The position numbers were made by a program, and so were the translations under genes. This document shows positions 1 through 46,650 of a stretch of 64,000 nt of DNA, in pieces. Position 1 is the stretch's first letter, and each line of letters starts with the position of its first letter. This DNA comes from Heptranchias perlo (Eukaryota). The stretch lies in NCBI RefSeq assembly GCF_035084215.1, contig NC_090363.1:6448001-6512000 (forward strand). Direction: 5' to 3'. The notes under the pieces are model-generated. The model did not search any database. It saw only the letters and a list, made by a program, of their open reading frames with translations, and was not told where the DNA came from.

Positions 1-1041
1 AAATCCTTATTTAAATGTATTTCTAATCATTTTAAAAGCTTTTTCCTTGGGTTATTTGTCTTTCTCGTCTGGTCCCAACGTTGGGTGAGCAGAGCCGGCC
101 GCTAGTGAACCAGAGCAATGTCAGACTGGGGTTTTAACTGGTGTGATCGGGGGACTCGGCGTGCAGATAATGCCGTTGGTGGCCGAACAGATAATTCAAC
201 AGAGGAACGCCAGGATATAATAGATCGCACAGCTTCTTTAAACCAGAGAAACAGCAGCAAATGCATAGAAACAGAGAGGGAGTTTCCTTCACATTTGCGC
301 CCAGATACACAAGTAAACCTGGGCGCAAAAACAATTATGTGGCTTAAAAGAGCGTGGGATTTCTGGGCGTAAGTGAGTTACGCACCTAATTACAATATTC
401 CAAGTCTCCTCAATCTTTTACCATCCAGTAAACCTTCCCTTCCAACCAATCTCCGCCAGCAAAACTGGTCCACGTCCCAGACTCTCAAATGCGAATATCC
501 TCCGGTTGCTCGTGTCGGTCCAGATTTTCAGGTCCAACAGGAGACAGTCATGTTGCTTTATTTTTAATTGCAATTTTTTAAACCTTTTAGAAAATATTAT
601 CACTGAGACCCGCACTGTATTATCTGTTTCTTATAATGCACATTTATGGCAAATATCAGTCACATTAATAATTGAAAAGCTTCCCCAATTGTAGGTTCCC
701 CAATTGCCCGAGGTGCATGAATGATGGGTGAATGAATTGAAACTTTTAATTTTAAGACTCAAGGAAGAAATATCCTGGTTTGGAGTTTCCTTGTGCCTCG
801 ATTGTTTACATCCATTTTAAGATGGGGCATATTCCAATGACATTGGGAGGATACTTGGCCGTAACTTGACATGGACATAATGAGCAAAGCTTCGGATGTA
901 ATTTTAGGGATGCATCCAAGGAGGAAATTCCTATGCTGATTGGCTTTCACCTTCACAGTTGCAATGGCATTTGTTGTTTTCTGGCCTCATCTGCTTACTT
1001 GGTGTCTTGTCTAATTTGTTTGTCCATCCACTGCAGGAAAA

Positions 1042-1084
1042 ATGCACCCAAGCCCCATCCTGTGGATATTTGCTGTCTTTTCCG
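1042..1084 (+). CDS. Gene A signal-peptide exon (MHPSPILWIFAVFS)
   Basis: ctgcag|gaaaaATG...TCC G|gtaagt. 43 nt, phase 1, same length as and homologous to the leader exons of genes B and C. Confidence 0.85.
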
Positions 1085-4000
1085 GTAAGTGGACATTCCA
1101 TTGTTTCTTAAGGATATAAGTCCGCCATGAGTGGTAGCTCATAAACGGGCGATGCCTCCTCCCTCCCTACTTCATCTCATCCTATCAGCATATCCTTCTA
1201 TTCCTTTCTCCCTCATGTGTTTATCTAGCTTCTCCTTAAAGGCATCAATCCAATCTCCTCAACTACTCCTTGTGGGAGCGAGTTCCACATTCTAACCACT
1301 CTCTGAGTAAAGAAGTTTCTCCTGAATTCCCTATTGGATTTATTAGTGATTATCTTATATTTATAGCCCCTAGTTCTGGTCTCCCCCCACAAGTGGAATA
1401 ATCTTCCCTACGTCTTCCCTAACAAACCCTTCCATTATCTTAAAGACCTCGATCAGGTCACCCCTCAGCCTTCTCTTTTCTAGAGAAAAGAGCCCCAGCC
1501 TGTTCGATCTTTCCTGATAGGTTCTGGTATCGCCCTTGTAAATGTTTGTTGCACCTTCTCCAGTGCCTCTGGATGCTTTTTATAATATGGAGTCCAGAAC
1601 TGTGCACAGTACTCTTAAGTGTGATCCAACCAAGATTCTATACAAGTTAAAGGTTAAGAAATTCTGCCAGGGCTAATAATTGAATGGACACTCTGTCTTA
1701 ATGATTGGTTCTGCGTATGCGACAGAGACGTGGATGTAGATTTTCAACTTGCCATCTGGTAAATCGACCAGTCAATCAGCAAGGCCAGTTTTAGGCCCAA
1801 CCAGCAAGCTATAGAATCAAACCGCTGGGGATCAGATTTGTTATTTGAATGAACTTCAGTAATGAGCACTAATGTATCACAGGTTGATGTACCATTACAA
1901 TTTTTTTTATATTCGTTCATGGGATGTGGCGAGGCCGGCATTTATTGCCCATCCCTAATTGCCCTTGAGAAGGTGGTGGTGAGCCGCCTTCTTGACAACT
2001 GAGTGGCCACATTTCAGAGAGCGATTAAGAATCAACCACATTTATGTGCGTCTGGAGTCACATATAGGCCAGACCGGGTAAGGACGGCAGGTTTCCTTCC
2101 CTAAAGGACATTAGTGAACCAGATGGGTTTTTACAAAAATCTGGTAGTTTCATGGCCACCATTACTGATACTAGTTTTTTTTAAAATGCAGATTTTATTT
2201 TTAATTAAATTAAAATTCCCAGTGACTATAGTGGGATTTGAACTCATAACTCTAGATTACCAATCCAGTAACATAACCACTATGCTACCAGACCCTTTTA
2301 ATGTAGATGCCTTTATGTGTTATTTTTATATTATTAAGGAGCTTAAGAAGTACATTCTACAGGGGAGGAAACTGTGAAAAGGTTGAGAGAGATGAGACCA
2401 ATTAAGTAATGCTTAGTTGAGGTAAATATTAGATTTTGAGAGTCTATCAATTATAAGAAGACAAGGAGGTGAGGAGCTATGAAGTCCGAGGAGAGAATGG
2501 GGTCGGGCAGGAGACAGCGCTGAATCCTGATTTCAACACAGGGAGGATACAGGGAGCCGGAACCACTCTCGTTTGCCTGGCCTCTCGACCATGAGGATGT
2601 CCTGCATATGGTCGGGGTGTTGAACTGCAAGTGAAGGGACTCTTAGTCAAGGGTAAAGGATCGATGAAATCCACTGATCGTAGAATGATACAGCACGGAG
2701 GAGGCCATTTGGCCCATCGTTCCTGTGCTGGCTGTTTGAAAGAGCTATCCAATTAGTCCCACTCCCCCTGCTGTTCCCCATAACCCTGCACTTTTTATTC
2801 CTTTTCAAGTATTTATCCAATTCCCTTTTGAAAGTTACTATTGAATCTGCTTCCACCGCCCTTTCAGGCAGTGCGTTCCGGATCATTACAACTCACTGTG
2901 TGAAAACACTTCTCCTCATCCCCACCCCCTGTGTTTTTTTAAACTCGTACACTTCATAACCATTGCTGCAAGACTATCTCCCAAATTTCCAACTTCCAGC
3001 TGCCAGAATGGCTTCCCTATGGGAAACTCCGATGGGAGAATCAACCCCTCAGCTGCAGAGAGGAGATTATTTAACCATTTTAAATAACTGGTTACTGACT
3101 GGGGGGTGAACTCGGACATGGGTGAGGGGACGTAAAACAGATGGAATCGCATTTGCTGCCTGCTATACCACACATCGGATATTCAATGTTATTATGGCAA
3201 TGGAACTTAATATCGGTGCAGCTTTTAACCATTTCTGCAAGACTGTCTCTCAAATGTGGAACTTCTAATCAGGTAAAATCGACTTTTATTGTTTGATTTC
3301 CAGGATTTAACGCTGAGAAGTTCACAGTTGTTCAAAAGGTGCCCAGTATTCTCGCAGAGGAAGGGCAGACAGTGCACCTCCCCTGTACCCACACACCCAA
3401 TGTCTCTGGGACAATATGGGCTTATTCCTGGTACAAGGACGCCAGAAATGGAACAGAAGTTTCCAACGGAACAGCAGGGTTCAGAGGTCGGATCTCCAGG
3501 CCTAAAGAAGATGATTTTTTTCATACCGGAGACGCTGCCATTCTAATAAAGGAGGTGAGACCGAACGATTCCGGGGTGTATTACTGCAAAGTGGCAATTA
3601 TGCAACACGGAGAGGAATATGGACCAGGAACAAATCTCACTGTGAGGGGTAAGTGATTCGCCTGCCTGCAACATCGTGCGACCAACGGGTGGGAGAATCG
3701 GCGCCACAATACTGTGTCCCTATCCCCGACTGGCGCCTCTGCCAGAATGGCTTCCCTATGGGGAACTCCAATGGCGGACTCGCCCCTCAGCTGCAGGGAG
3801 GAGACTATTTAACCATTTTGAATAACTGGTTACTGACTGGGGGGTGAACTCGGACACGGGCGGGGGGGGACGCAAAACAGATGGAATCGCGTTTGTCGCA
3901 CACCCGATATTCAAAGCTATTGATGGCAATGGATGTTAATATCGGGCGCAGCGTGTAACGGGCGACCGATGCCAGAGCGCCTGTTTTTGCATCCACGCTG

Positions 4001-7000
4001 GTGGCCAATCTCACGGCCACGGGGTCCAAACAGCGCGGAGAAATTTAATGGGAAGGTATTAACAGCTGAGTTAAAAATAACACACGACAGAAATCAAGTC
4101 TATTGGTTGGTACCATGGTTATAAAGACGGGGACGGGCCTGACAAAAACAAGCCCATATTGGACTTCGAACCAATATCCGACTCACTGCCCTGCTCTGCC
4201 CTCTGACCGAGGGCGGGTCGTGCCTTTTGGTGGCCGGTGAGTGTTGTCGCTAATCAGGACTGCGCCCTGAAAGTTGGCCCCTCGTAACCGTTTCTGCAAG
4301 ACTGTCTCTCAAAGTTCCAACTTCCAATCAGGGTAAGATCGACTTTTATTGTTTGATTTCCAGGATTTAACCCTGAGAAGTTCACAGTTGTTCAAAAGGT
4401 GCCCAGTATTCTCGCAGAGGAAGGGCAGACAGTGCACCTCCCCTGTACCCACACATCCAATGTCTCTGGGACAATATGGGCTTATTCCTGGTACAAGGAC
4501 TCCAGAAATGGAACAGAAGTTTCCAACGGAACAGCAGGGTTCAGAGGTCGGATCTCCAGGCCTAAAGAAGATTATTTTTTTCATACCGGAGACGCTTCCA
4601 TTCTAATAAAGGAGGTGAGACCGAACGATTCCGGGGTGTATTACTGCAAAGTGGAAATTGTTAAACACGGAGAGGAATATGGACCAGGAACAAATCTCAC
4701 TGTGAGGGGTAAGTGATTCGCCTGCCTGCAATATCGTGCGACCAACGGGTGGGAGAATTGGCGCCACAATACTGTGTCCCTATCCCCGACTGGCGCCTCT
4801 GCCAGAATGGCTTCCCTATGGGGAATTCCAATGGCGGACTCGCCCCTCAGCTGCAGGGAGGAGATTATTTAACCATTTTAAATAACTGGTTACTGACTGG
4901 GGGGTGAACTCGGACACGGGCGGGGGGACGCAAAACAGATGGAATTGCGTTTGCCGCCCGCGATACCACACACCCGATATTCAAAGCTATTGATGGCAAT
5001 GGTGATGATCCGGATTCTTTCCCCTCAGTCTGGTTCAGTAAAAACTGAGTCGAGTACATTTTAAAGTTCATCACAACTTTAATAGCAGGGTTCTTAGTCT
5101 GCAGCATTGATTTGGACTCCTGATAAAGTCCCTCTATGCTGGCAGAGCAAGAACAAGAAACATACAGAAATCCACACGTTTTTATACAGATCAGTAGGGG
5201 TTGGAACATACTTAACGAGGGTCAACACCAATCATAAGCCGGGCATAGGTTGCCATGCGAGGTTACATTATTGCCGGCCAATCATAGATCGTCCATGTGC
5301 TGATCATGCTGCTGTTAGACATCAAAGGGGATAACTTCCTCACCTTCCAACCTGGAATGTTCTTTCCTGTTCCTTCTGTTCCTTATCTCCCAACTTGGAA
5401 TGTCTTTCAACTTTGGCTAAGCTCGTTACCTATATTGATCTTCCATAAACATGGAGACATTCAGACCAGTCCTTGAATCACATCAAAGACTCTACATTGA
5501 TAAGACAATGCAAACCTGCTGACTACGCAAACATATGGCCCAGCAGGAGGCCAGGCCACCTGTACCAATCTCAGTTACTAACTAATTAACCCTTTCTAAC
5601 CATTTTGCATTCTGCTTCTTTGCCACGTAGGCATCTTAATATTTTACCGAAAACTGACCACGTTGGGATTCTCATTGGATGTTAATATCGGGCGCAGCGT
5701 GTAACGGGCGACCGATGCCAGAGCGCCTGTTTTGCGTCCATGCTGGTGGCCAATCTCACGGCCACGGGGTCTAAACAGCGTGGAGAAATTTAATGGGAAG
5801 GTATTAACAGCTGAGTTAAAAATAAGACACGTCAGAAATCAAATCTGTTGGTTGGTACCATGGTTATAAAGACGGGGACGGGCCTGACAAAAACAAGCCC
5901 ATATTGGACTTCGAACCAATATCCGACTCACTGCCCTGCTCTGCCCTCTGACCGAGGGCGGGTCGTGCCTTTTGGTGGCCGGTGAGTGTTGTCGCTAATC
6001 GGGACTGCGCCCTGAAAGTTGGCCCCTCGTAACCGTTTCTGCAAGACTGTCTCTCAACGTTCCAACTCCCAATCGGGTTAAGACTGACTTTTATTGTTTG
6101 ATTTCCAGGATTTAACCCTGAAAAGTTCACAGTTGTTCAAAACGTGCCCAGTATTCTCGCAGAGGAAGGGCAGACAGTGCACCTCCCCTGCTCCCACACA
6201 TCCAATGTCTCTGGGACAATATGGGCTTATTCCTGGTACAAGGACTCCAGAAATGGAACAGAAGTTTCCAACGGAACAGCAGGGTTCAGAGGTCGGATCT
6301 CCAGGCCTAAAGAAGATGATTTTTTTCATACCGGAGACGCTTCCATTCTAATAAAGGATGTGAGAGTGAGCGATTCCGGGGTGTATTACTGCAAAGTGGC
6401 AATTATGCAACACGGAGAGGAATATGGACCAGGAACAAATCTCACTGTGAGGGGTAAGTGATTCGCCTGCCTGCAATATCGTGCGACCAACGGGTGGGAG
6501 AATCAGCGCCACAATACTGTGTCCCTATCCCCGACTGGCGCCTCTGCCAGAATGGCTTCCCTATGGGGAACTCCAATGGCGGACTCGCCCCTCAGCTACA
6601 GGGAGGAGAATATTTAACCATTTTAAATAACTGGTTACTGATCAGAGGTGAAATTGGACTTAGCGGCGACGCAAAACAGGCAGAATCGCTTTTGCGGACT
6701 GTCGTACCACACCCCCGATAGTCAATGCTATTGATGTCTAAGAAAATTAATATCAGCAGGAGAGAATAACCGGCTTCTGATGCGATGCTGCCTGTTTTGC
6801 GCCCCCCCAAGTAGGTCAGACAGTGCCCTTTCATAATGGGGTGGATCATACAAGGGGTTCGACACTGTCCTTTCCCCCTCTGGGACTGGGTGGTACAGTG
6901 GGTCAGACACTGTCCTTTCCCCCTCTGGGACTGGGTGGTACAGTGGGTCACACACTGTCCTTTCCCCTCTGGGACTGGGCGGTACAGTGGGTCAGACACT

Positions 7001-10000
7001 GTCCTTTCCCCCTCTGGGACTGGGTGGTACAGTGGGTCACACACTGTCCTTTCCCCTCTGGGACTGGGCGGTACAGTGGGTCAGACACTGACCTTTCCCC
7101 CTCTGGGACTGGGTGGTACAGTGGGTCACACACTGTCCTTTCCCCCTCTGGGACTGGGTGGTGCAGTGGGTCAGACACTGTCCTTTCCCCCTCTGGGACT
7201 GGGTGGTACAGTGGGTCAGACACTGTCCTTTCCCCCTCTGGGACAGGGCGGGGTGGATTCTAACTTGTTCTGCCCATTATAAATGGGGTAGTTGCAGCAT
7301 TAAGATAGCGTTTACCAGTTAATGCCCGCTCTCCCACCGACATGCCGAGTGTCCGCCTGTTTCAGTTAGTAGGAACTTTAAATATGCAAATTAGAGTGTT
7401 ATACCCTGCACAGGATCCTGATTACCATTTTGGGAGGCAACTGTGCAGTTTATTCTAAAATCACCAAAAGCAAGTGGACAGGTACGAAACATAATCTAAA
7501 AAGCTTATGGAATGTTGGCCTTTATTGCAAAGGGGGCATCAATACAAAGGGGTTGTAATTATGTTACAGGTCAATAAAGCCCTGGTTAGACCGCACCTGG
7601 AATAATGTGATCAGCTCTGGGCACCACACCTCAGGGAGGATATATTGGCCTTGGAGGGAGTGCAGTGTGTGGATTCACCAGAATATGGTTAAATAATGAG
7701 GACAGGCTGCACAGACTAGTCTCGTATTCCCTTGATTATAGAAGATTAAGGGGTGATCTAATTGAGGTGCTTAAGATGGTTAAAGGGTTTTACAGGGTGC
7801 ATAAAGAAAAACTATTCCCTCTGTTGCGGGGAGTGCAGAACAAGGGGGCGTAACCTTTAAATTAGAGCCAGGCCGTTTGGGGGTGATGTCAGGAAGCGTT
7901 TCTTCACACAAAGGGGAGTGGAAATCTGGAACTCTCTCCCCCAAAAAGCTGTTGAGGCCGGAGGGGATCAATAGCAAATTTCAAAACTGCGATTGATAGA
8001 TTTTTGTTAGGTAAAGGGTATTCCGGGCTCTGGAACGGAGGCGGGTAGCTGGAGTTAAGATACAGATCAGCCATGATCTAATTAAATGGGGAACAGGCTC
8101 GAGGGGCTGAGTGGCCTGCTCCTGGTCCTGTGTTCTGATCTGATTTGCTTTCTCCTCCACAGAGAAAACAAAATCAATCCCGGCTGTATTGTTAATCCTG
8201 TTCATCAGTGTAGGGGTGGAAGCGAGTGTCCTTCTAATCGTTGTACTCCTCTGCCTGAAGTTCCAAAGAATGAAAGGTAAGGGTGGTCATCATTTGCTGT
8301 TTGAAAAACGCTAGGGCCTTGAAACTGTGCGGAGGGAACATTGACAGCTGAATACTTAAGGCAGAAGTATCTAATCTGCAGCCCTAGCGGTACGGTGGCA
8401 AGTGGGTATGTTGGTGTAGTGGTGTTGGCACTGGACCAGTGAGCCAGTGGCCGCGAGTTAGAACCACACCATCGCTGGCTGTGAGGTTAAATTTAATAAA
8501 TGGGTTAAATTAGCAGCAGGGGAAAATGGCGTTGAAAGTTACGAGATTTTTGTACAAACCCAGTTGGGAATGTGTCATGGCGTCCTGGACTACAAGTAAC
8601 ATCAGTTGACACTTGGTGCTGTCTCAAGTACGAGCGACTTAGTTATAACAGCAACTGCTTCGAGAAAAGGCCCACCACCTTCTCAGGGAAACGAAAGAGG
8701 GGTAATAAAGGTCACCTACACGAACAAATAAAAAGGGTCATTTTAAACTAACTCGCTGGGCGGGAGTCCCAAGGGATCGGGTGGATCGCTAGTTTTAGAC
8801 CCAGGCCAATATTACTTCCTGTTGGCTTCAATGGAGAGTAAAATCGAGTGGGATGTCAAACCAGCGTTGCCCCCCCCCCAATCCGGTCAGTTTCCAGACG
8901 GGCGGGTTAGGTTAAAATTGCCCCCATGTTCGTCCTGAGAGCCAGTAACGCAACCTTTGTAGCCAACGAAACGTAACGCCATTTTGTGTGTAATGGGGCA
9001 GAAATCCATCTCGTGCAGGTCGACTTAAATGGGCAGGACGTTCAGCAGGCGGCCAATGCGATACTGTGCAAGGTGAATTTCTACGATGTTTCTCAGTTTG
9101 GTGGGTCTCGAGTTTTTTTTTGAAAAGAGCTGATTTTTAAAAAAAACTTACTGTTGTTTGGTTGCTGGATAAATCCTTAATCACCAACATCTGTCCGTAG
9201 GAGCAAGTTGAGACAATTGCAAATTAATGGGTCGTGGATTTAGACTTTACATGGGAGTCCCCTCCCCAAGTCGCAGTGGTACACACCTGTGTGGACCAGG
9301 AGGACTAAAGCTTGGACACCCTCTGCTCTGTGTCCATATTACATTTCTTATGCTTGACACTATGCTGTCAAAAACAGGTGTATGAAGGTTTAATGGGTTT
9401 GTGTGAAGTTGTTTTCTCCATTAGCATAACATAAAGCATAGTTGTCCAATGAACAGATTAACCCCTCCCTCAAAATAGCAGACTAGGGAATTTAGTTAGA
9501 ACCTATTGAACAATTGCATAGTGATAAGCCCTAAGACATTCCCTTTGATTTAGAATATTAATAATTGCGTACAAATTACAGCACAGAAACATAGGAACTT
9601 AGGAACAGGAGTAGGTCATTTAGCCCCTCGAGCCTATTCCTCCATTCAATGAGATCATGGTTGATCTGTGACCTAACTCCATTTACCCGCCTTAGCCCCA
9701 TATCCCTTAATACCTTTGGTTAACAACAATCTACCAATCTCAGATTTAAAATTAACAATTGAGCTAGCATCAACTGCCATTTGCGGAAGAGCGTTCCAAA
9801 CCTCTACCACCCTTTGTGTGTAGAAGTGTTTTCTAATCTCACTCCTGAAGGTCCTGGATCTAATTTTTATGCTACGTCCCCTAGTCCTAGAATCCCCAAC
9901 CAGCGGAAATAGTTTCTTTCTTGCCACCTTATTAGTTCCCTTAATGTCTTGAAAACTTCGATCAAATCACCCCTTAATCTTCTAAATTCCTGGGAACACA

Positions 10001-13000
10001 ACCCTAGTTTGTGCAACCCCTCCTTGTTAATTAACCCTTGGAATCCAGGTATCATTCTGATAAATCTACGCTGCACTCCCTCCAAGGCCAATATATCCTT
10101 CCTAAGGTGTGAACACAGTACTCCAGGCGTGGTCTAACCAGGGCTTTGTATAGCTGTAGCATAACTTCTACCCTTAGTCCTCGAGATATAAAGGCCATTA
10201 GCCTTTTTGATTATTTTCTGTACCTGGCCATTCAGCCCAACTGGCTTATGCCGGTGTTTATGCTGCACACGAGCCTTCTATCACCCTGCTTTATATCACC
10301 CTATCAGCAGAACCTGCTATTCTTGGGTACTTATCTAGCTTCCCCTTAAATGCATCTATGCTATTCGCCTCAACTACTCCATGTGGTAGCAAGTTCCACA
10401 TTCTAACCACTCTCTGGGTAAAGATGTTTCTCCTGAATTCCTTATTAGTTTTATTAGTGACTATCTTATATTTATGACCTCTAGTTTTGGATTTCCCCCA
10501 TATGCAGAAACATCTTCTCAATGTCTACCCTATCAAATTTTCAAGACTTCTATTAGGTCACCCCTCAGCCTTCTCTTTTCTAGAAATACATTTTAAAATT
10601 AAATAGATTTTAAAGAATAAAAGAAACAACATGCATTGATGCAGTACTTTATCACGTCTCTCATACATGTTGAACCGCTTCACACAATGGATTATTTTGA
10701 AGTGAATTCACTATTTTTACCTGGGCAAGAATGGCAATGATAAGAAATAAGAGAGAAGAAATGTCAAGTATTTCACAATCCACTTTTCTTTCTTATCTCC
10801 CTTTTCATTAGGCATTCGACAGGCTCAAAGGTGGGTAGTTGTCAGCAAACATACATTCATATGATAAGAAATGGGCAGTCAACACATGTCAGCACAGGCC
10901 GTTCACCTCTTTCATTTCCTTGCTCTGCAGACAAGGAACTGTTTTTCCAGAAGTCACTTACGTGCCGGGTAAGTACAGCTGGTTTTGATTCCTGGGACAA
11001 ACAATATAAGTTTCTATGGGGATATTTTTTAGAATCATACAGTGCACAAGGAGGCCATTCATGCCCATGCCGCCTCCTTGAAAAGGCTTTCCAATTAGTC
11101 CCACTCCCCTGCTCTTTCCCCGTAGCCCTGTAATTTTCCCCCTTCAAGGATTTATCCAATTCCCTTTTGAAAGTTACTATTGAATCTGCTTCCACCGCCC
11201 TTTCAGGCAGTGCATTCCAGATCAGAACAACTCGCTGTGTAAAAACATTCTCCTCATCTCCCCTCTGCTACTTTTGCCAATTACCTTAAATCCGTGTCCT
11301 CTGGTTACCGACCCTCCTGAGAGTGGAAACAGTTTCTCCTTATTTACTTTATCAAAGCCGCTCATAATTTTGAACACCTCGATTAAATCTCCCATTAACC
11401 TTCTCTGCTCTAAGGAGAACAACCCCAGCTTCTCCAGTCTCGCCACATAACTGAAGTCTCTCATCCCTGGTACCGTTCTAATAAATCTCCCCTGCACCCC
11501 TCTCCAAGGCCTTGACATCCTTCCTAAAGTGTGGTGCCCAGAATTGGACACAATGCTCCAACTGAGACCTAACCAGTGATTAGAGCCCAGTTATTACTAT
11601 TTGTGATATCAGTGTATGAATACCTGGGACATTGGGCGTTGGATAGATTAAGTAGAATGGGCCTATACTCACAGGAGTTTAGAAGAATGAGAGGTAATCT
11701 TATTGAAACATATAAGATTCTGAGGGGGCTTGACAGGGTAGATGATTATAGGTTGTTTTCCCTGGCTGACGAGTCTAGAACTAGGGGGCATAGTCTCAGG
11801 ATAAGGGGTCGGCCATCTAAGACTGAAATGAGAAGGAATTTCTTCACTCAGAGGATTGTGAATCTTTGGAATTCTCTACCCCAGAGGGCTGTGGATGCTG
11901 AGTCATTGAATATATTCAAGACTGAGATAGATTTTTGAACTCTAAGGGAATCAAGGGATATGGGGATCGGGCGGGAAAGTGGATTTGAGGCCGAAGATCA
12001 GCCATGATCTTATTGAATGGCGGAGCAGGCTCGAGGGGCCGTATGGCCTACTCCTGCTCCTATTGCTTATGTTCTTATTGTTCTGTCTGCTCTTTTAAGA
12101 GATATTGAGGGCGAAATTTAGACATGGGTGGGGAAACAAAATAAGTGAAATCGGATTTGCTGACCATTGTGAGCCAGACCAGATAGTCAGTTCTATTGAA
12201 GTCTGTGCAACTGAATATTGGGTGTGTTTTATATATAAAACGGGTGACCCACATGATACCGCCTGGTTTGTGTTCATGTTCATGTCTAATCTCACCCTCC
12301 CACATTGAGGAAAACCATTTGTCGGGCAATCGGAAAGACGTTCTTTTTGAGTGTGTTTATTTACTGCACGTAGTGAACAGAATAAATCTTCGTCATTTAT
12401 TTCACACGGGCTATTTCTCCTTTTGATACAACAGACACAGGAATTTGTTAACAATATGTTACGTGTTCATATACGGACTGTAAGTTCGAGGCTATTTTTC
12501 CCCAATGTTTCAACTGCAAATGAGAGAAAACATTAAATTATCGCTCGAGTTTTAACTTACACTTGAATTGACCGAGTGCAACTACAGCCTTATAGCATTT
12601 TTTTGAAGTTGGATTTTTGTAGTTTTAAAGCAACTCAGTCAGACACTCCAGGATGCCTCAGTGGTTCGGATTTTGGGGGTAATTTTAACCTAACTCGCCA
12701 GGCGAGAATCCCATGGGATCAGGTGGAATGGCGATTCTACCCCACGCCAAATATTACTTTCCGTTTACTTGATTGGAGCGTTAAATTGGGCAGGGTGTAA
12801 AACCAACGTTTCATCCAATCCAGTCAGCTTTCCAATGGGCGGGTTAATTTAAAATTGTTCCCCCAATTGCCTTTTTTGAAATGTATAATTCACTTTGTTT
12901 TTGTAAAATGCGGTCAGTTGCTTTGCCAAACATTATCTGCTGAAAGCATTTCTTAAAATGCAAGGTTTACAATGAAACTTAATTAAAAAAAAACACGTCC

Positions 13001-25000: not shown

Positions 25001-26329
25001 GAAATACACACAGATAGAGTGATATAGGACCTTAGCTGTGGTCTTTGCTCTCCCCTTATCTACATCGAGAGAGCTTAGGTGCAGATTGGCAGGGCTAAGG
25101 CCACAGGGCTACTGCTGGTGTTTAGCTAGTTCAAAGAAAGGGCAAAGCAATTTCCACTACGAGGGGCTGAATGGCCTACTCCTGTTCCTATGTTCCTATG
25201 AGTGTGGCAATCTACTGCAACACTCAGTAACGCCGATGATTTTGCTAAAAAGTAGAATGGAACGCATTGTCCCTGGTAAGGTGATCCTGGCTAAACAAGA
25301 GTGCAGTAGTGTAGTGGTTATGTTACTAGACTAGTAATCTAGATGCCTGGACTAATAATCCAGAGAATGACCCACCACAGCAGTTGCGGAATTTGAATTC
25401 AGTTGAAAAAAATCTGGAAATAAAAAGCTGGTTTCAGCATAAAATGACCATGAAGTTATCAGATTGTCATAATAACCCAACTGGTTCACTAATGTCCTTT
25501 AGGGAAGGAAACCTACCGTCCTTACCCAGTCTGGGCCTATATGTGACTCCAGTCCCACACCAATGGGGTTGACTTTTAACTTCTCTCTGAAGTGGCCGAC
25601 CAAACCACTCAGTTGGGGAAACTAGGGAATGGGCATTAAATTCTCGGCTTGCCAGCGACGCCCACATCCCGAGAATGAATTTTAAAAACGGATATTAAGG
25701 TATTAGCTTACAGGGTTACCTGGTGCAGAAGCGGGAAAGATTCTTCACTGTTATGTGACAGGTCTGCCCCTTCGGGTCCCATTGATGAGCCAGCCTGGCT
25801 GATAAATCATCAACAGTCCTCTGGAACACAGCAGACCTGCCTGTACGACCATGATTACAATAAAGAATCAATTATCGACCTGCTGTTGAAGTTTGTGATT
25901 AAAATAAACTATTTGATGCACTGCGTTAACCTTGATAGTTATAATGTGGAGATGCCGGTGATGGACTGGGGTGGACAAAAGTAAGGAGTCTTACAACACC
26001 AGGTTATAGTCCAACAGTTTTATAACTGTTATTTTATAACTGTTATTTTATAACTGTTATTTTATAACAACAGGACTATAACCTGGTGTTGTAAGACTCC
26101 TTATATTTGATAGTTATACACTGATATTTAAGTGGGACACTCTAGTCTTTACCAGTGTTCAGGATGTACTGTTTAACCCAGTTGAATGTAATATACTTTT
26201 GTATCTTCATAATTTAAGCAGGAAAATGGAGCAGATTCCGACCAGTGCCCTTGGGTGGCGAATGACGATCGCAAAGACAAAAATCTGTCTAAAGGCCCAT
26301 CTTCTACTGTGTACACAGAAGTGCAGTAG
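1042..26329 (+). CDS. Gene A: NKp30/NCR3-like receptor with three tandem VJ-type Ig domains and a long ITIM/ITSM tail (about 578 aa, 16 exons)
   Basis: Exons 1042-1084, 3304-3648, 4364-4708, 6109-6453, 8163-8276, 10812-10830, 10931-10968, 13840-13880, 15879-15920, 16009-16052, 18462-18499 (GC donor), 19568-19608, 20294-20391, 22388-22422, 24518-24558, 26222-26329. All have AG acceptors and GT donors (one GC) and are phase-compatible. They total 1737 nt, open to TAG, with AATAAA at 26668. Confidence 0.75.
1155..1650 (-). mobile_element. CR1-type LINE 3' fragment
   Basis: Degenerate RRLRGDLIEV...FFTQRVVRMWNSL coding on the minus strand. Confidence 0.75.
1910..2290 (-). mobile_element. tRNA-derived SINE with LINE-derived 3' tail
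   Basis: tRNA-like head (tagtggttatg...gagttcaaatcc). The 3' end is shared with the LINE at 44130-44755. Confidence 0.7.
2681..2916 (-). mobile_element. CR1-type LINE 3' fragment
   Basis: NALPERAVEADSIVTFKRELDKYL plus 3' tail. Confidence 0.8.
3304..3648 (+). CDS. Gene A V exon 1 (NKp30-like VJ-type Ig domain)
   Basis: tttccag|...G|gtaagt, 345 nt, phase 1/1. Motifs LPC, W, EVSNGTAGFRGRI (human NKp30 recalled as EVRNGTPEFRGRL), DSGVYYC and J-like YGPGTNLTV. Confidence 0.93.
4364..4708 (+). CDS. Gene A V exon 2
   Basis: Intact 345-nt copy with the same splice sites, 1060 bp after V1. Confidence 0.92.
5003..5674. mobile_element. Solo LTR-like insertion (672 bp) between V2 and V3
   Basis: Absent from the homologous site after V1 (ggcaatgg/atgttaat). 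TG...CA ends, short imperfect terminal inverted repeat, 4-bp TSD atgg/ttgg (one mismatch). Confidence 0.7.
6109..6453 (+). CDS. Gene A V exon 3
   Basis: Intact 345-nt copy with the same splice sites, 1745 bp after V2. Confidence 0.92.
6861..7250. repeat. Minisatellite, 44-45 bp unit, about 8.5 copies
   Basis: Unit cactgtcctttccccctctgggactgggtggtacagtgggtcaga. Confidence 0.95.
7455..8137 (+). mobile_element. CR1-type LINE 3' fragment ending just before the gene A TM acceptor
   Basis: LVRPHLE...RRLRGDLIEV...FFTQR plus tail. Confidence 0.85.
8163..8276 (+). CDS. Gene A stalk/transmembrane exon (EKTKSIPAVLLILFISVGVEASVLLIVVLLCLKFQRMK)
   Basis: ttctcctccacag|...AAA G|gtaagg, 114 nt, phase 1/1. 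A hydrophobic stretch is followed by basic stop-transfer residues. Confidence 0.88.
9586..10585 (-). mobile_element. Two adjacent CR1-type LINE 3' fragments
   Basis: ORF-track peptides 9673-10091 and 10291-10521 match the CR1 ORF2 C-terminus. Confidence 0.85.
10812..19608 (+). CDS. Gene A proximal cytoplasmic micro-exons (7 exons of 19-44 nt; VTYVP, SIYIPM)
   Basis: Exons 10812-10830, 10931-10968, 13840-13880, 15879-15920, 16009-16052, 18462-18499, 19568-19608. Each has a pyrimidine-rich acceptor and a donor; the phases chain 1-2-1-0-0-2-1-0. Confidence 0.65.
11029..11580 (-). mobile_element. CR1-type LINE 3' fragment
   Basis: LEKLGLFSLEQRRLMGDLIEVFKI. Confidence 0.85.
11640..12076 (+). mobile_element. 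CR1-type LINE 3' fragment
   Basis: GLYSQEFRRMRGNLIETYKI...FFTQRIVNLWNSLP plus tail. Confidence 0.85.
13248..13465. mobile_element. Penelope-type short element forming a perfect 186-bp palindrome with hammerhead motifs
   Basis: 13280-13372 is the exact reverse complement of 13373-13465. TSD taacatctcactga lies on both sides. A CTGAGGA...GAAA core is present in each arm. Confidence 0.75.
13374..13412 (+). ncRNA. Minimal type I hammerhead ribozyme motif (mirror copy on the - strand at about 13333-13371)
   Basis: ttcac-CTGAGGA-a-ggagg(aag)cctcc-GAAA-gc-tt-gtgaa: stem I, core, stem II and the palindromic mini stem III typical of Penelope-associated hammerheads. Confidence 0.55.
14866..15014. repeat. 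Degenerate tandem repeat, about 50 bp x3
   Basis: cccaatgtgttggttac...atagtgggaagatttc occurs three times. Confidence 0.7.
15015..15616 (+). mobile_element. Solo LTR (602 bp)
   Basis: TGTGGAAA...TTTCGACA termini, perfect 4-bp TSD cttt, TATAAA at 15448 and AATAAA at 15533. Confidence 0.8.
16206..17165 (-). mobile_element. Possible solo LTR (about 960 bp)
   Basis: TGTGA...TCACA termini and a minus-strand TATA at about 16563. The TSD is poor. Confidence 0.35.
20294..20391 (+). CDS. Gene A cytoplasmic exon with ITIM IQYASL
   Basis: ccattcaaacag|KTATGSIQYASLQKSYLKKRPSLNLIVEYCDS|gtgagt, 98 nt, phase 0/2. Confidence 0.75.
20888..20957. repeat. 22-bp tandem repeat, 3.2 copies
   Basis: gtgcaggtcgtacccctggcct, three perfect copies. 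Confidence 0.95.
22388..24558 (+). CDS. Gene A cytoplasmic micro-exons 22388-22422 (EHDYEYDELNVI) and 24518-24558 (ARHDLNPQGMLVNP)
   Basis: Strong polypyrimidine acceptors, gtaaat and gtaaga donors, phases 2/1 and 1/0. Confidence 0.7.
23176..23550 (-). mobile_element. CR1-type LINE 3' fragment
   Basis: Same subfamily sequence as 11029-11580. Confidence 0.8.
25303..25682 (+). mobile_element. tRNA-derived SINE, same family as 1910-2290
   Basis: Shares the ctggttcactaatgtcctttagggaaggaaacc core and the gcccacatccc..gaatgaat tail. Confidence 0.7.
25944..26106. mobile_element. Second Penelope-type inverted element, centre replaced by a 14-bp tandem repeat
   Basis: Same tgtggagatgccggtgatggactgggg start as 13248, 31-bp inverted arms, TSD ttgatagttata. 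Confidence 0.7.
26222..26329 (+). CDS. Gene A terminal exon with ITSM (...GPSSTVYTEVQ*)
   Basis: Acceptor aatttaagcag|GAA, phase 0, open to TAG at 26327-26329. TxYxxV consensus at the extreme C-terminus. Confidence 0.8.
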   Translation, partial: ENGADSDQCPWVANDDRKDKNLSKGPSSTVYTEVQ

Positions 26330-32390: not shown

Positions 32391-35300
32391 CCTTATCCAA
32401 TTTTTTAAAAAAGGTGATAAGGCAGAGCTGGGTAATGAAGAAGTAATCACGGTGCGATGCAGTCCACATAAGGCGTGTGATTATGTGGGCGTGCACGCAG
32501 CAGGAGGCAGCTTAGCGGAAATGGTGGGATACTGCCTCTCTATTTTCCGATTATGGACATTAATGGATGGAAAATCAGGGCCGAAACCTCGCAGTTGGCT
32601 TCGAAAATTCCCTCCACCCACATGACTTTATGACATGACACAGGTGGTTCCGCACCAAGTTGTCTTTATTGTACTGTTGTTTATTTTTTAGCGAAGCCAG
32701 CCCATAATACGCTCGGATGTTTCATACCGTGCTACTGTAGAGATGGTCCTGATTTTCTTCCCGAAACACTAGGAGCTGGCTAGTGAAAGTCTGGAGTAGT
32801 GTTTGAACCGCCCTCTTGGGATTAATGGAGTTGAAGAATGGGGACCAGGTCTCAACAAATGCTTCCAGCTTCCCCATAATGCGATTATTTTGATATATCA
32901 CATATCGGCCACTAATTTCGGGGTTATTCCCTGAGTGCTGTCTGCGAGAAATATTCAGGAAGCCACGAAAATACAGGTTTCACCCACTTAAGTGCTGGGC
33001 GACTAAGAGATTAGCAAACACACCGTCTTGTTATAATTATATACTTTGCTTTGTTTTTTTTAATCGAAAAATCAGTGCAAAAGGCCAATGAATGTAATGC
33101 AGGAAACCTTCAAAGTTCAAAAAAGAGTTGAGACAACAAGCAAGATAAATCAATAAGTCACCTCAGATGATCCCAAACTTGGGCTCTACCAGATCGTAGA
33201 TTGTAGGGGGATGGCAAGACTGAGAAACGTGAGTTTTTTTTCGGGGGGGGGGGGGCGGTGGGGGAGTGGGAGGGGTTGACCTTTAACCAAGTGTCTAGTG
33301 CGCAGATCAATCATCAAGCTTAAGAATCTACAAGCTGAACTACTGAGAAATCCATATAAACAGGGTTCTGTCTGAGAATTGAGGAGTGCACACTCTGTCT
33401 CCATTGGAACGCATTCTGATTAGCCAAATGCAAATTGGCAAGAGCCAAGGTTTAGTGACCTCCAAGTGTGTGCAGTGGTGTTGCTGTGCTAAGTGATCTA
33501 AAACCATACCCAATCACAGTGCATTGACAAGCTCCTTGCTGACTATCCAACCGGAACCACCTTGTCCATTGTGACAATCGGTTTGTAGGATTCTTGAAGC
33601 ACACGGTAGGGAGAGTCCCAACTCCCAGTATCAGATCTATTCGCCCTCCCAGCTTAAACTAATGAACACATAATATAGTCTCGGTTCCAATCTTCCTTGG
33701 CAAGGCATGTCAACATGGAGGCACCATGAAGTGAAACAGTTCCCTCTTCAAGGAGAATGATCACCAGCTGGTCCTGAGCATGACTGAAACAAAGTAGGAG
33801 ACAATATAATGAGTCTCGATAGCAAAGCAATGAGTACGTACGATTGTAAATATGCGTTTCTCCAATATACATAATTACCATGATCTACTAAGAAAACCTT
33901 ATATAAGAAATGGCCAAATTAGGCACAAAGCTTAAGGTTTAGATAAATGTACGTTTTAAGGTGCGTATAAAGAAGAATGAAACTGAAATAAAACAGGCAT
34001 TCATTATTTATGTTTAATTGGATTTTTAAAATAATTTCCCGTGGCATTTAACAATTCATATCATGTAAAGCTAATTGTCACTTTTCCTTCTGTCCAGATG
34101 TGCCTGGAAATAGTATTGAGTTGCATCTAAACTGGGACTTTTACCAAATCGCTAGACTATCTTCGCTCTAAATCACATTTTTTCGGACTAATTTCGCAGA
34201 TCATGTTTGACTAAGTAGATTCGTGACTTAACAGTGAATAGAAAAATTTAGCCAAATTGGAAGTAAAAGAAAGAAAGACTTGCATTTATATATCACCTTT
34301 CACAACCTCCCAAAGCACTTTACAGCCAATGAAGTACTTTTGAAGTGTAGTCACTGTTGTAATAAAGGAAACGTGGCAGCCAATTTCTACTGTATGGAAA
34401 TAACACCTCCCTTACGTTTATCCTCTTGGCTGACTTTGCTTTTTGCTTCCTCTCCATCTCCTCGATGTTCTCAAGCCCCACATACTCCAGTCCCTGCTCC
34501 ACAATGCTCTTCCATTTTCCCCTATGTCCCAGCCTGTTCACATCAGACTCATGACCTCCATGAAATTTACCATCTACTCTTCAGAGTCCCTATCCTTCAT
34601 CATCTGTAGCTATCAACACAGTTGATCACTATGTCGTCCACTGCCTCTTATCTGTGGTTCACCCCTGTGGCACTGTCTATGTTGGTTACACTCCCAGATT
34701 CGCCAATGCCTTTTCTTCCTGTTTCCCTATGATCAATCCCAGTGAGAAGCAATGGTTCGTATTTAACTGGCTACTTATCCTCAACTACATGCCAATCCTC
34801 CATGACTTCATCCATAAACATAGACCCAACGTTGATAGGTATTCTGAGAAGACCCAGTGTTAATGACTCACACTGCACCGCCATCCAATGCCGTCTGACT
34901 ACCTATTGGGCATCATGTCCTGCAAGTCCCCGAACCTTCTGTAACTCAACATCAGTAAGATGGCAGTCATCCTTTTTGACTCCCAATAGAAAGTTAGTGC
35001 TCCAGGCACTGGTCCTCCTTCCTGACTGTTCATGTGTGCCGAACCTCCAGGCGGCAAACTGTACAAAGCAAAGGAGAGGTTAAAGAGGATACATGGGATA
35101 GCGCATAAAGGTCACAGTCACATAAGGCACCATTGGTAACTTTGATCTGAGATGAACTCGAAACCCCACATTATGTTCATGGGACTTAGGGGAGAGAGCT
35201 CCACTCTGCACCTGGCAGGGTATGGTTATGACTTTTAGTGCACCCCCAAATAAAAGCAAATTATAAATGGCACCTCTGTTTATCTTTAAGACCACTATTG

Positions 35301-37542: not shown

Positions 37543-40500
37543 TCATGTGTCGTTATCCGATGGTGCACCTGTAGCGTCGTTCTGCCTAGTGTTACCTGGA
37601 TGATGACAATATTCAGAGAGAACATTATCAAGGCAAAACTTTAGACTATTTGCTCAATAGATATTCAATAATCTTACCTCCCAGTCTCCAGAAGACTGCG
37701 CCGACAATCAATGTGATGACGACCACTCCTCTGACAATATACAGAATCGCGTTTGCGTTTATGCCTGTGTTCAGGTCAACCACCGCCGAACCTACGGAGA
37801 ACAAGTCAAAATTCGGTTTCCCTATTAGTCTTATTCTCTCCTTCTGTCGCCAGTCTATGGGGTAGAAATCCGCCTTAGGCAGTAGGGCAAGACGGGCGAT
37901 ATCGAATCGGCAATGGTGAACACGGGGCAATTTGAAACTAACCCGCGGGTCGGGAAATTGACGGGATTGGGTGCAACGCTGGTTTTACAGCCTGTCGGAT
38001 TTTACTCTCCATTGAAGTCGGGGGGAGAGTAAGATTGGGCGAGCAAACCCAGTGTTCCAATGGAACTCTTCGGTTTCCCACCCTGACGGTTAGGTTAAAC
38101 TCCCAAAAAGACGAAGTCTGCAATAGAATGTTGATGAACACCTTGTCCGTTTTTTTAAAGTACCCGTCAATGTACAAGTTAATTAACATCTACATAAAAT
38201 TACATATAATTTACAGCACAGAAAAAGGCCGTTCAGCTCAACTGGTCTGTGCCCGTGAATATGCTCCACACGAAACTCCTCCCACCTCACTTTATCTAAG
38301 TCTGTCTCTATTTCTTTCTCACTCATGTACTTATCTAGCCTTCGCTTAAATGCATCTGTGCTATTCGCCTCAACCACTCCATGTGGTAGCCAGTTCCACA
38401 TTCTCACCACTCTCTGGGTAAAGGTGTTTTTGCTGAATTCTATATTGGATTTACTAGTGAGTAACTTATACTTACTTTTGGTCTCCTCCGCGAGTGCAAA
38501 CATCTTCTCTATGTTTACCCTATCAAACACTTTCATAAGCTTAAAGGCCTCTATCAGTTCACCTCTCAGTCTTCACTTTTCTGGAGAAAAGAGCCCCGGC
38601 CTCTTCAGTCTTTCCTGATAGTTCTAACCTCTCAGTTCTGGTATCATCCTTGACAATCTTTTTTACATCTTCTCCGGTGTGTCTTTATCATGTTCAGTGA
38701 TTCCATATTCGTTTTATTGTCTCTATATGCTTTCTGGTGCCTCTTTATCCTTTTCTTTTTACTTTGAATGTTTTCAAAGCTCAGAGGAACAATCCTGGAA
38801 AACCAAAGAAGCTGAACACGTTTTCCTGGAAACGATGCCACGTTGCAAAAGAAGAGAAATGGCTTTGTAGAATCTTTATCAACGACGGTGAACTGAGACT
38901 GGATCGGCCTCTGGAAAGCTTCACAAGCTTACAGGCAGATGATACCGCCAGATATTAAAGTGAATTTATGGGCAGTTATTAATAGGAAAATCATGTAAAC
39001 TGCGGTACCGACCGGTTTAACTCCAAATGGAACATTTGGCTCACTGGCCGGCATGTGGTGGGCCAACCATGCTTTCTGAATATTACTTTCACTCGAAAAG
39101 GAATAAAATTAACTCTATTGCTCTGGTCTCCCCCAGGCAAAGTACTACCCCAGCTGAAGAGAGAAGGCAGATGGCTGATGTCCTCACTAGCTCTCCCCAG
39201 CGTCACAATGGAAACACTGGGAACCACTGCCTTCGTCCTATATCTTCCGCCATGTACAAGAATGCTTGTTTATTGTCCCAGTGTAGAGGGGTCCTTGTGA
39301 CTACCGCGGACTTGGGCTGACTGAACGGTCCAATTTCACCTTCAGTCAGTAACCAAGTTATTTAAAATGATGAAATAGTCTCCTCCCTGCAGCTGAGGGG
39401 TGATTCCATCATCATAGTTCCCCATTGAGAAGTCAAGCTGGCAGACGCACAAGCCGATGATAGGGACTCAGCATTGTGGCACCGATTCTTCCACTCATTG
39501 CTCACATGATATTGCAGGCAGACGAATCACTTACCCCTCACAATGAGATTTGTTCCTGGTCCATATTCCTCGCCAAGATGCAACATTGCCACTTTGCAGT
39601 AATACACCCCGGAATCGTTCGGTCTCACCTCCTTTACTAGAATGGAAGCATCTCTGGCATTAAAAAAATCATCTTCTTTGGGTCTGGAGATCCGACCTCT
39701 GAACCCTGCTGTTCCGTTGGAAACTTCTGTTCCATTTCTGTCATCCTTGTACCAGGAATAAGCCCCTATTGTCCCAGAGACATTGGGTGTGTAGGTACAG
39801 GGGAGGTGCACTGTCTGCCCTTCCTCTGCGAGAATACTGGGCACCTTTTGAACAACTGTGAACTTCCCAGCGAAAATTCCTGGAAACGAAGAAAGTTCTT
39901 GCTATCTCATTCGAAGTTGTAACTTTGAGAGACAGTCCTACTTAGACTGTTATGGAATGGCTGTGTTTACAACGGGTGGAGTTTGAATAAGCGTGAACTT
40001 CTGAGCAACAATTGCTGGAAATTGTACGACTGGGCTAGACTCTCAATTTTTAAATCTATACCGGGCGGCAGATCTGCAACTCCAGTTTTACACCCCGGCT
40101 GCAAGTTGCCATTCTATCCCAATATCCTGGCTTGCCAAGCAGTCTTTTTACAGCGCATTAATCTGTATTGTTTGGCTATCATGTTAAAATTTCAACATTA
40201 AAGGTTAACGAATAGACTGCCCAAGTACACTGGTATATCCAGTTTTCCGGATTATTGAGCTATAATTTTTATGTTCGCTGCCTGGTGGAGCGAATCCTTC
40301 ACCATTGGGTGAAATTCCTTTTTGGGCAGCATATTTTCTTTTCCATTGAATCCCATGCGAAATAAAATCGGGTACGATGTGAAACTGGCTGCCTATCGCC
40401 TATTTTGCACTACTGCCCAAGATCTATTTCACCGCCATTGTGTTCAATGCGATTGAAAATCAGGTGGGTTTTTTTTTACAATGGGCGGCCAGTTTTATGC

Positions 40501-40823
40501 CCCAGTAGCAAGTTGAAAATCCACCCTAATATGATTTGCTTCTTAGTACTCAGATGGTTTTAGCACATCCGAACATCAAAAAAGGACAACTCTAATTGGT
40601 ATAATTGGTTACTGCCCGTTTGCTTCAGTGAGCCTGGGTGACATGTAAAATCAATGCATATGATGCCCTTGCATAGTTAGTCCTGAATTCCAATTGGCAC
40701 ATTAACGGATGTTTATAAATGTTAGGCGGAATCGTCCAGCTGATAAATGAGGAATGGAAATCAATGAGGTGTCTACTTACCAGACAGAGGAATTAATATC
40801 CACAGAACGCAGCTTGGATTCAT
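37543..40823 (-). CDS. NCR3: Gene B: activating NKp30/NCR3-like receptor (184 aa; leader, V, TM with Arg, short tail)
   Basis: Exons 40823-40781 (MNPSCVLWILIPLS), 39879-39535 (V), 37791-37678 (GSAVVDLNTGINANAILYIVRGVVVITLIVGAVFWRLG) and 37595-37543 (GNTRQNDATGAPSDNDT*). 555 nt in frame, with AATAAA about 65 nt past the stop. The four-exon layout and TM Arg match NCR3, but one-to-one orthology is not established. Confidence 0.85.
37678..37791 (-). CDS. Gene B TM exon with intramembrane Arg
   Basis: ttctccgtag|...GGA G|gtaaga, 114 nt. The AGA (Arg) codon at 37732-37730 lies inside the hydrophobic stretch. Confidence 0.88.
38200..38690 (-). mobile_element. CR1-type LINE 3' fragment in a gene B intron
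   Basis: FTQRVVRMWNWLPHGVVEA. Confidence 0.8.
39535..39879 (-). CDS. Gene B V exon
   Basis: 345 nt, phase 1/1. Differs from gene A V1 at 16 of 115 aa. Confidence 0.93.
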
Positions 40824-46319: not shown

Positions 46320-46650
46320 CAGACAGCGTTGGGAACATCGCAATAGTTCAAAACCCGGCATCCCATAATGTAACTGAGGGGCAGACAGTTCTGTAGAGTA
46401 TCGCCGAAGGGGCCCCGGGAGTAGGTGTCTACAGTTGGCAAAGGAACAGTAAAGCCTGAAGTAAACTTTCCAGCCTTGTAGTGGAATACAGGAGGGGGGA
46501 TAATTGGTCCAAATAGGGAGCATGTCGACCGAACGATAGGCGCTTCGATTCAATTAACCAATGTATCAGTGTGCGATTCGGAGATCTATTATTGCCAAGT
46601 GAAATTTGCAACTCCTGGTGAACATTATGGGCAAGGGATGACACTTGTTG
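46320..46650 (+). pseudogene. Decayed NKp30-like V exon
   Basis: cttttacag|ADSVGNIAIVQNPASHNVTEGQTVL* (TAG at 46394), first Cys absent, then GVYSW, a further stop and frameshift, then ASIQLTNVSVCDSEIYYCQVKFATPGEHYGQGMTLV. Confidence 0.85.

Follow-up and report, generated by a model that had tools for sequence, protein, structure and literature searches.

A predicted three-V receptor gene of the NCR3 (NKp30) family and its putative paired neighbour in Heptranchias perlo

To our knowledge, NKp30 (NCR3) is the one natural killer (NK) receptor family that has been traced from sharks to mammals. It is also used to model the unsplit VJ gene that came before antibodies and T-cell receptors. Tandem copies of an immunoglobulin (Ig) exon inside one gene are known from arrays of the Dscam1 type, where the copies are mutually exclusive. 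Here we describe gene A, assigned by sequence and predicted fold to the NCR3 family, in a window of 64,000 nucleotides (nt) of Heptranchias perlo (assembly GCF_035084215.1, contig NC_090363.1, positions 6,448,001 to 6,512,000). Three tandem variable (V) exons, V1, V2 and V3, lie in this gene between one leader exon and one transmembrane (TM) exon, and a neighbouring gene of the family, gene B, lies on the opposite strand. Our best explanation, held with moderate confidence, is that gene A is a real and young three-V receptor with a predicted inhibitory tail, mostly spliced whole and paired with gene B. All coordinates are those of the window unless stated otherwise.

It is useful to compare gene A with the solved structure of human NKp30 (PDB codes 3NOI, 3PV6 and 6YJP). 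In both, each domain is encoded by a single VJ-type exon, and gene A keeps the sequon at the Asn68 position as well as Ile50 and Phe85; Gly51 of the human protein is replaced by Trp. Mammalian-type activating NKp30 carries a single V domain plus a TM arginine (excerpt of PMC6514059), the latter for pairing with CD3zeta/FcRgamma, while gene A has three V domains, no Arg or Lys in the TM span and a long tail with tyrosine motifs. The single V domain, which the preliminary description of this stretch took as established for NKp30, holds for mammals but not for the elasmobranch and frog models considered below. The nurse shark genes (GenBank MT914154-161, cited in the available part of PMC12227049) form a multigene family of non-rearranging VJ receptors; its member QTT61904.1 is 43% identical to V1 but has one V domain and a short tail.

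The RefSeq models of white shark LOC121291130 (XP_041068137-141) and basking shark LOC144695540 have the TM and tail type of gene A, with 44% identity over 201 residues after the V domains. They also resemble gene A in three near-identical V domains (92-95%) and in a tail motif, IQYASI, of the immunoreceptor tyrosine-based inhibitory motif (ITIM) type. However, the white shark V domains are only about 60% identical to V1-V3, form a clade of their own (support 98/92) and keep Gly at the Gly51 position. The closest V domains (67-72%) and homologous TM and tail exons are found in the horn shark proteins XP_067865770-775 (three V) and XP_067865370-391 (one V, long tail), but the domains of the three-V model are old and divergent (58-73% identity) and an IQY-type ITIM exon is absent. 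Gene A differs from Dscam1 in that its copies are three whole-domain exons whose joint inclusion is possible. The Xenopus CEACAM genes (PMC5112662) belong to another family, but as in the likely pair of genes A and B, the inhibitory and the activating members point in opposite directions and resemble each other only around the V exon; tandem ligand-exon copies within the inhibitory gene are not described in the available part of that paper. A description of multi-V NCR3 was not found in our literature search, although Kinlein 2021, Flajnik 2012, and Ohta and Flajnik 2015 may contain one.

The V-exon array of gene A

The exons and repeat units of the array, all on the + strand, are as follows.

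1042..1084, +: leader exon of gene A, 14 codons and 1 nt
2955..3229, +: putative relic fourth unit (V0) with the V exon deleted; the V-upstream flank abuts the V-downstream flank in the alignment
3304..3648, +: V1, a VJ-type exon of phase 1/1, in unit 1 (about 3226-4284)
3960..4284, +: spacer X, separating V1 from V2; the genome search gave one other copy, X' (5706-6029, 97% identity)
4364..4708, +: V2, in unit 2 (about 4285-6029)
4996..5672, +: insertion of 677 nt within unit 2; it occurs once in the window and has no through-going open reading frame
6109..6453, +: V3, in unit 3 (6030 to about 6798)
8163..8276, +: TM exon of gene A; the span has one Glu and no Arg or Lys; single copy in the genome search

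The three V exons are 345 nt long, have phase 1/1 and share the last 22 bases of the acceptor and the donor GTAAGT. Together with the leader and the TM exon they join as one open frame, in agreement with the preliminary description. Their pairwise differences are 9, 12 and 13 nt with no indels, and the domains are 92-93% identical in amino acids, differing by 8-9 residues. Each is a Pfam V-set domain ending in YGPGTNLTVR, which indicates a non-rearranging VJ domain whose J-like G strand is encoded by that exon too (as the VJ domain is defined in the available part of PMC12227049). Human NKp30 is the closest solved relative by sequence, with four of the five matches at E up to 1e-6 and the best at 1.5e-14. 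The V1 structure model has a predicted local distance difference test score (pLDDT) of 90, and the top three Foldseek matches to it are human NKp30 (best E 1.2e-12, template-modelling score 0.80). The sequence and the predicted fold of the V domains place gene A in the shark NCR3/NKp30 family, as had been proposed, and the orthologue models agree both with this assignment and with a three-domain ectodomain. The heavy N-glycosylation proposed earlier agrees with the number of N-x-S/T sequons (5, 5 and 4 in V1, V2 and V3), but as a special trait it was rejected because the V domain of gene B has 4 and those of relatives 2-5.

The possibility of three separate mini-genes was rejected since neither a leader nor a TM exon was found between the V exons. 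A tblastn search with the leader and TM peptides of gene A gave zero matches there. The most hydrophobic 19-residue windows of the V-V introns (715 and 1400 nt) reach 1.43 and 1.96, compared with 2.77 for the real TM span, and the sole leader-shaped candidate, at 5136 within the 677-nt insertion, is hydrophilic. Reading through each V donor (3649-3657, 4709-4717 and 6454-6462) gives Gly-Lys-stop, so that intron retention would give a secreted form; AATAAA does not occur in the V-V introns.

Self-comparison revealed a repeat of 720-1069 nt at 94-95% identity, far beyond chance, corresponding to a unit of about 1.06 kb copied in tandem. The segment 3000-3229 shares 80-89% identity with the flanks after V1, V2 and V3, and the alignment suggests that about 2955-3229 is a fourth unit that has lost its V exon. 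The 677-nt insertion is likely a high-copy repeat. A 45-nt minisatellite of about nine copies (6810-7251) follows directly after unit 3.

Units so similar might also be alleles or haplotypes written in tandem by the assembly; misassembly was a concern of the preliminary description. This was checked with contigs from two DNA runs (X1 and X4) of a single sample, which is probably that used for the assembly, over the region 2950-4990. The depth of the collapsed V contig is 129.5 in X1, where the flank contigs have 36.7 and 45 (upstream flank), and 63-65 in X4, where the flank has 16.8; a V depth of three to four times the flank is expected because gene B shares some words. This depth, roughly three times that of the flank, is a rough measure that gives no copy number, and the case for the array is weakened by it, by the probable identity of the sample with that of the assembly and by the limited region covered. 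None of the contigs listed spans the array, and the side from the insertion to V3 lies outside the comparison. However, a 64-nt V2-specific contig without differences has a depth of 54.1 (X1) and 21.7 (X4), near flank level rather than half of it. One contig (3827-4367) connects the V-downstream flank, across the spacer, with the V exon that follows, and another carries the 10 changes and one gap of the second spacer type, so that the unit junction and both spacer types are present. In the genome search the V-V spacer occurs exactly twice and the TM exon of gene A once. V1-V3 cannot be two alleles because there are three distinct copies. The contigs of the same sample therefore support three copies, and misassembly of the array is very unlikely.

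Signalling parts of gene A and the relation to gene B

The remaining exons of gene A, and gene B, are located as follows.

10812-10830, 10931-10968, 13840-13880 and 15879-15920, +: predicted tail exons of gene A, in frame
16009-16052, 18462-18499 (GC donor) and 19568-19608, +: predicted tail exons of gene A, in frame
20294..20391, +: tail exon with the ITIM IQYASL, a motif kept in orthologue models
22388-22422 (YEYDEL), 24518-24558 and 26222-26329 (TVYTEV, stop), +: last predicted tail exons; the terminal TVYTEV resembles an immunoreceptor tyrosine-based switch motif
37678..40823, -: gene B, with the leader at 40823-40781, a single V exon at 39879-39535 and a TM exon with Arg at 37791-37678

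The gene A model has 16 coding exons, 578 amino acids and an 11-exon tail. It was built by hand from splice sites and horn shark homology, and its last exons are the least sure. Horn shark proteins match four of the seven predicted tail exons within 10812-19608. The exon ending at 18499 uses a GC donor, which is needed to hold the frame with the horn shark homologues. IQYASL fits the ITIM consensus. When the TM and tail sequence of gene A was compared by blastp with nine proteins, all seven long-tailed ones matched (E from 1e-57 to 7e-22) and neither of the two B-type proteins did. By this comparison the uncharged-type TM and the multi-exon tail of gene A are homologous to those of the elasmobranch long-tailed NCR3-like receptors with a conserved ITIM, and gene A is likely an inhibitory-type receptor with a predicted tail.

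Gene B, as described earlier, has a single V domain. Its TM exon shares 56% identity with lamniform B-type receptors, and a segment at 34906-35064 (-) is a probable tail exon matching the white shark B-type tail. Having a single V domain and an arginine in its TM span, gene B has the mammalian-type activating layout, which gene A does not have, and it is likely the activating partner of gene A. As far as can be judged from sequence, the more telling contrast between the two genes is in signalling, a predicted inhibitory tail in A and a TM arginine in B.

The similarity between the two genes extends over about 616 nt around the V exon at 85-87%, and the V proteins are 81-86% identical. Outside this region 61 of 84 columns agree around the leader, the TM exons are not alignable, and what matches elsewhere is short, dispersed and probably due to repeats. 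Genes A and B thus fit predicted paired receptors: the ligand domains are alike, the signalling parts differ, and the similarity lies mostly around the ligand exon. V1-V3 and the V domain of gene B form one clade apart from all other species, with support 99/94 in a first tree, from which one member of a second NCR3-like cluster (L013, see below) was left out, and 96/87 in a second tree. The site patterns are patchy, V1 sharing two sites with gene B against V2 and V3. The confinement of the similarity to the V region suggests gene conversion between the paired receptors, by analogy with the Xenopus paired CEACAM genes, where conversion is limited to the ligand exon (PMC5112662).

Relatives, ligand face and use of the V exons

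Orthologue-type models were found in 12 elasmobranch species. They are automatic models, mostly named "uncharacterized", with the following numbers of V domains.

Horn shark 3; white shark 3; basking shark 2 and a partial one; catshark 2; zebra shark 1 and a partial one
Two devil rays: 2 and 5 in one, 2 or more in the other; two stingrays: 3 and 2
One V: two bamboo sharks and whale shark; also three horn shark paralogue models

More than one V domain is thus present in 9 of the 12 species, which is no unbiased rate because the searches favour multi-domain matches. Multi-V NKp30-like models also occur in five frogs, a bichir, a sawshark and a bamboo shark paralogue. Judged from these sequences the multi-V architecture of gene A is not unique among elasmobranchs. 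Near-identical triplets in at least two lineages imply separate duplication or homogenisation, and the separation of the clade of V1-V3 and gene B from the white shark triplet implies that triplets were rebuilt or homogenised in each lineage. Position-by-position orthology of V1-V3 with the horn or white shark triplets was not seen in the two trees, judged without a formal clade test. The grouping of horn shark V3 with catshark V2 (99/96) also hints at an earlier state with two domains. The white shark B-type gene LOC121291272, with a TM Arg, has two V domains of 96% identity, so that V domains are doubled outside the inhibitory gene too. A two-V catshark model, LOC119975535, has a tail and no TM exon, being either a real soluble form or a model error.

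Human NKp30 touches B7-H6 through 11 residues (available part of PMC3135353, Table II). By sequence mapping, 3 of these 11 positions were counted as identical in V1, though strictly only Ile50 and Phe85 are so and the others are similar. The changes private to V2 are D70Y, A97E, M99V and Q100K, and three of them fall at the contact positions Glu111, Leu113 and Gly114. All three are found in a stretch of 9 nt and may stem from a single event. The Trp of V1-V3 at the Gly51 position is found in several ray first domains as well, whereas Gly stands there in 37 of the 41 aligned V domains, including that of gene B. Gene A may therefore not bind B7-H6 as NKp30 does.

The array could be real, and maybe translated, while its V number has no selected function, since symmetric phase and local repeats would suffice for neutral copy-number turnover. 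The proportion of nonsynonymous differences among V1-V3 (pN 0.032-0.040) is about equal to that of synonymous ones (pS 0.006-0.032). Intactness is weak evidence of use because the chance of no stop is 0.49 at 17 variable sites, and the V-less relic unit and the range of one to five V domains among relatives also agree with such turnover. However, multi-V models recur in the species listed above, and some copies are old yet open, namely those of the horn shark, the catshark (48% identity between domains) and the rays (43-49%), with the grouping just mentioned. We regard neutral turnover as rather unlikely.

The preliminary description also considered cassette splicing, with up to seven V combinations and no RAG recombination. 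Regulated choice among the V exons would then give a small germline repertoire, with V sets differing by cell or state. The phase 1/1 exons with equal splice sites would allow this, the private changes of V2 fall at contact positions, and indirect support comes from two of the five white shark RefSeq isoforms, X3 lacking V2 and X4 lacking V3. The other three hold all V domains, a single-V isoform is seen in none of the five, and all three horn shark three-V isoforms hold all three. Skipped isoforms of exons 92-95% identical may reflect mis-placed reads, and the copies in gene A are only 8-9 residues apart, the contact changes of V2 being so closely spaced. Docking-site pairing of the Dscam type was not above shuffles in 11 of the 12 tests, and the twelfth has the energy of its non-significant twins. 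A mutually exclusive array of this type was rejected, as there is no docking-site signal and the symmetric phase and the introns bar nothing by frame or sterics. The seven-form repertoire is unsupported, and we consider regulated cassette splicing improbable.

If only one of the three V exons were normally spliced, the others would be young unused spares. Their intactness would be expected by chance at this age; moreover, the branch-point regions differ among V1, V2 and V3, and a donor-like sequence (4331-4340) lies about 28 nt before the V2 acceptor, with weaker ones at V1 and V3. However, the acceptor ends and donors are identical in the three exons and the orthologue models include all domains, which makes this possibility slight.

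V1 matches 14 places in the genome, 13 of them on the contig of the window, including a second NCR3-like cluster 0.5-0.65 Mb away. Further NCR3-like loci are as follows.

5.79-5.96 Mb of the same contig: second cluster, eight NCR3-like V exons (L005, L007-L011, L013 and L014)
46331-46649, +: NCR3-like V exon disrupted by stops and a frameshift; its nearest relative is a two-V model of a bamboo shark
56907-57236, -: gene C, an intact distant NCR3-like V exon, 44% identical to V1 and 61% to a catshark domain

A PRRC2 (BAT2_N) gene, one of three untyped paralogues, is located on this contig between the window and the second cluster, some 380 kb from the window, and suggests a possible linkage to class III of the major histocompatibility complex. 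The class I and class II alpha matches are all on other contigs, and the class II beta search gave no match.

Proposed course of evolution and its meaning

Under the explanation we favour, the single VJ exon of an NKp30/NCR3-family gene would have been copied in tandem inside the gene, with units gained and lost by unequal crossing-over; this is harmless to the frame because the exons are phase symmetric. Recurrent exon birth and death would shape the V number, and gene conversion would keep the V domains of A and B alike. Most mRNA would carry all three V exons, with one of them skipped in a smaller part. With more domains the ectodomain would be longer and its avidity higher, and the inhibitory signal, given by phosphatases that the ITIM recruits, would outweigh that of gene B on a shared ligand. 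An avidity gain is plausible by analogy with oligomers of the human NKp30 ectodomain, which bind B7-H6 more tightly in surface assays (available part of PMC7409301).

Several points weigh against this explanation. The same oligomers show no avidity gain in solution by isothermal titration calorimetry (PMC7409301). A ligand shared with gene B is uncertain because Trp replaces Gly51 in V1-V3 while gene B has Gly. There is no sign of selection among the copies: the replacement excess is not significant (P 0.22-0.43), positive selection among V1-V3 being rejected on this ground, and neither is the enrichment of contact sites among the variable residues (3 of 13, P 0.11). Several V domains are not required, since one-V forms exist in 3 of the 12 species and in the three horn shark paralogues. 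Homogenisation of A and B is not general because the A-type and B-type V domains of the white shark are only 61% identical, compared with 81-86% here. No transcript of gene A was seen in four RNA runs of the same sample (901-20800), where none of the 15 joints listed, out of 125, is at its exons; two of these runs on 2950-4990 gave one repeat match and otherwise nothing. These runs are swamped by repeats and say nothing for or against expression.

A bolder view would be that, within a single inhibitory NKp30 gene, sharks and rays repeatedly rebuild a VJ exon array of pre-RAG type whose combinatorial splicing yields a small germline repertoire of receptors. The domains would differ at the ligand face (in the FG loop of V2 and at position 51, with Trp in the inhibitory copies and Gly in the activating partner), as would be expected if pathogens drove a chase of the inhibitory receptor and its activating decoy. 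We consider this doubtful.

The favoured explanation varies themes that are already known, namely paired receptors with several Ig domains and exon duplication, and was latent in unnamed RefSeq models. If it is true, the inhibitory NKp30 branch of elasmobranchs alters its number of domains, from one to five, repeatedly through exon duplication. The locus would show this process under way, with three young copies, one deleted and conversion with the activating neighbour, and the family would offer a natural series for asking whether valency or reach sets the balance of paired receptors.

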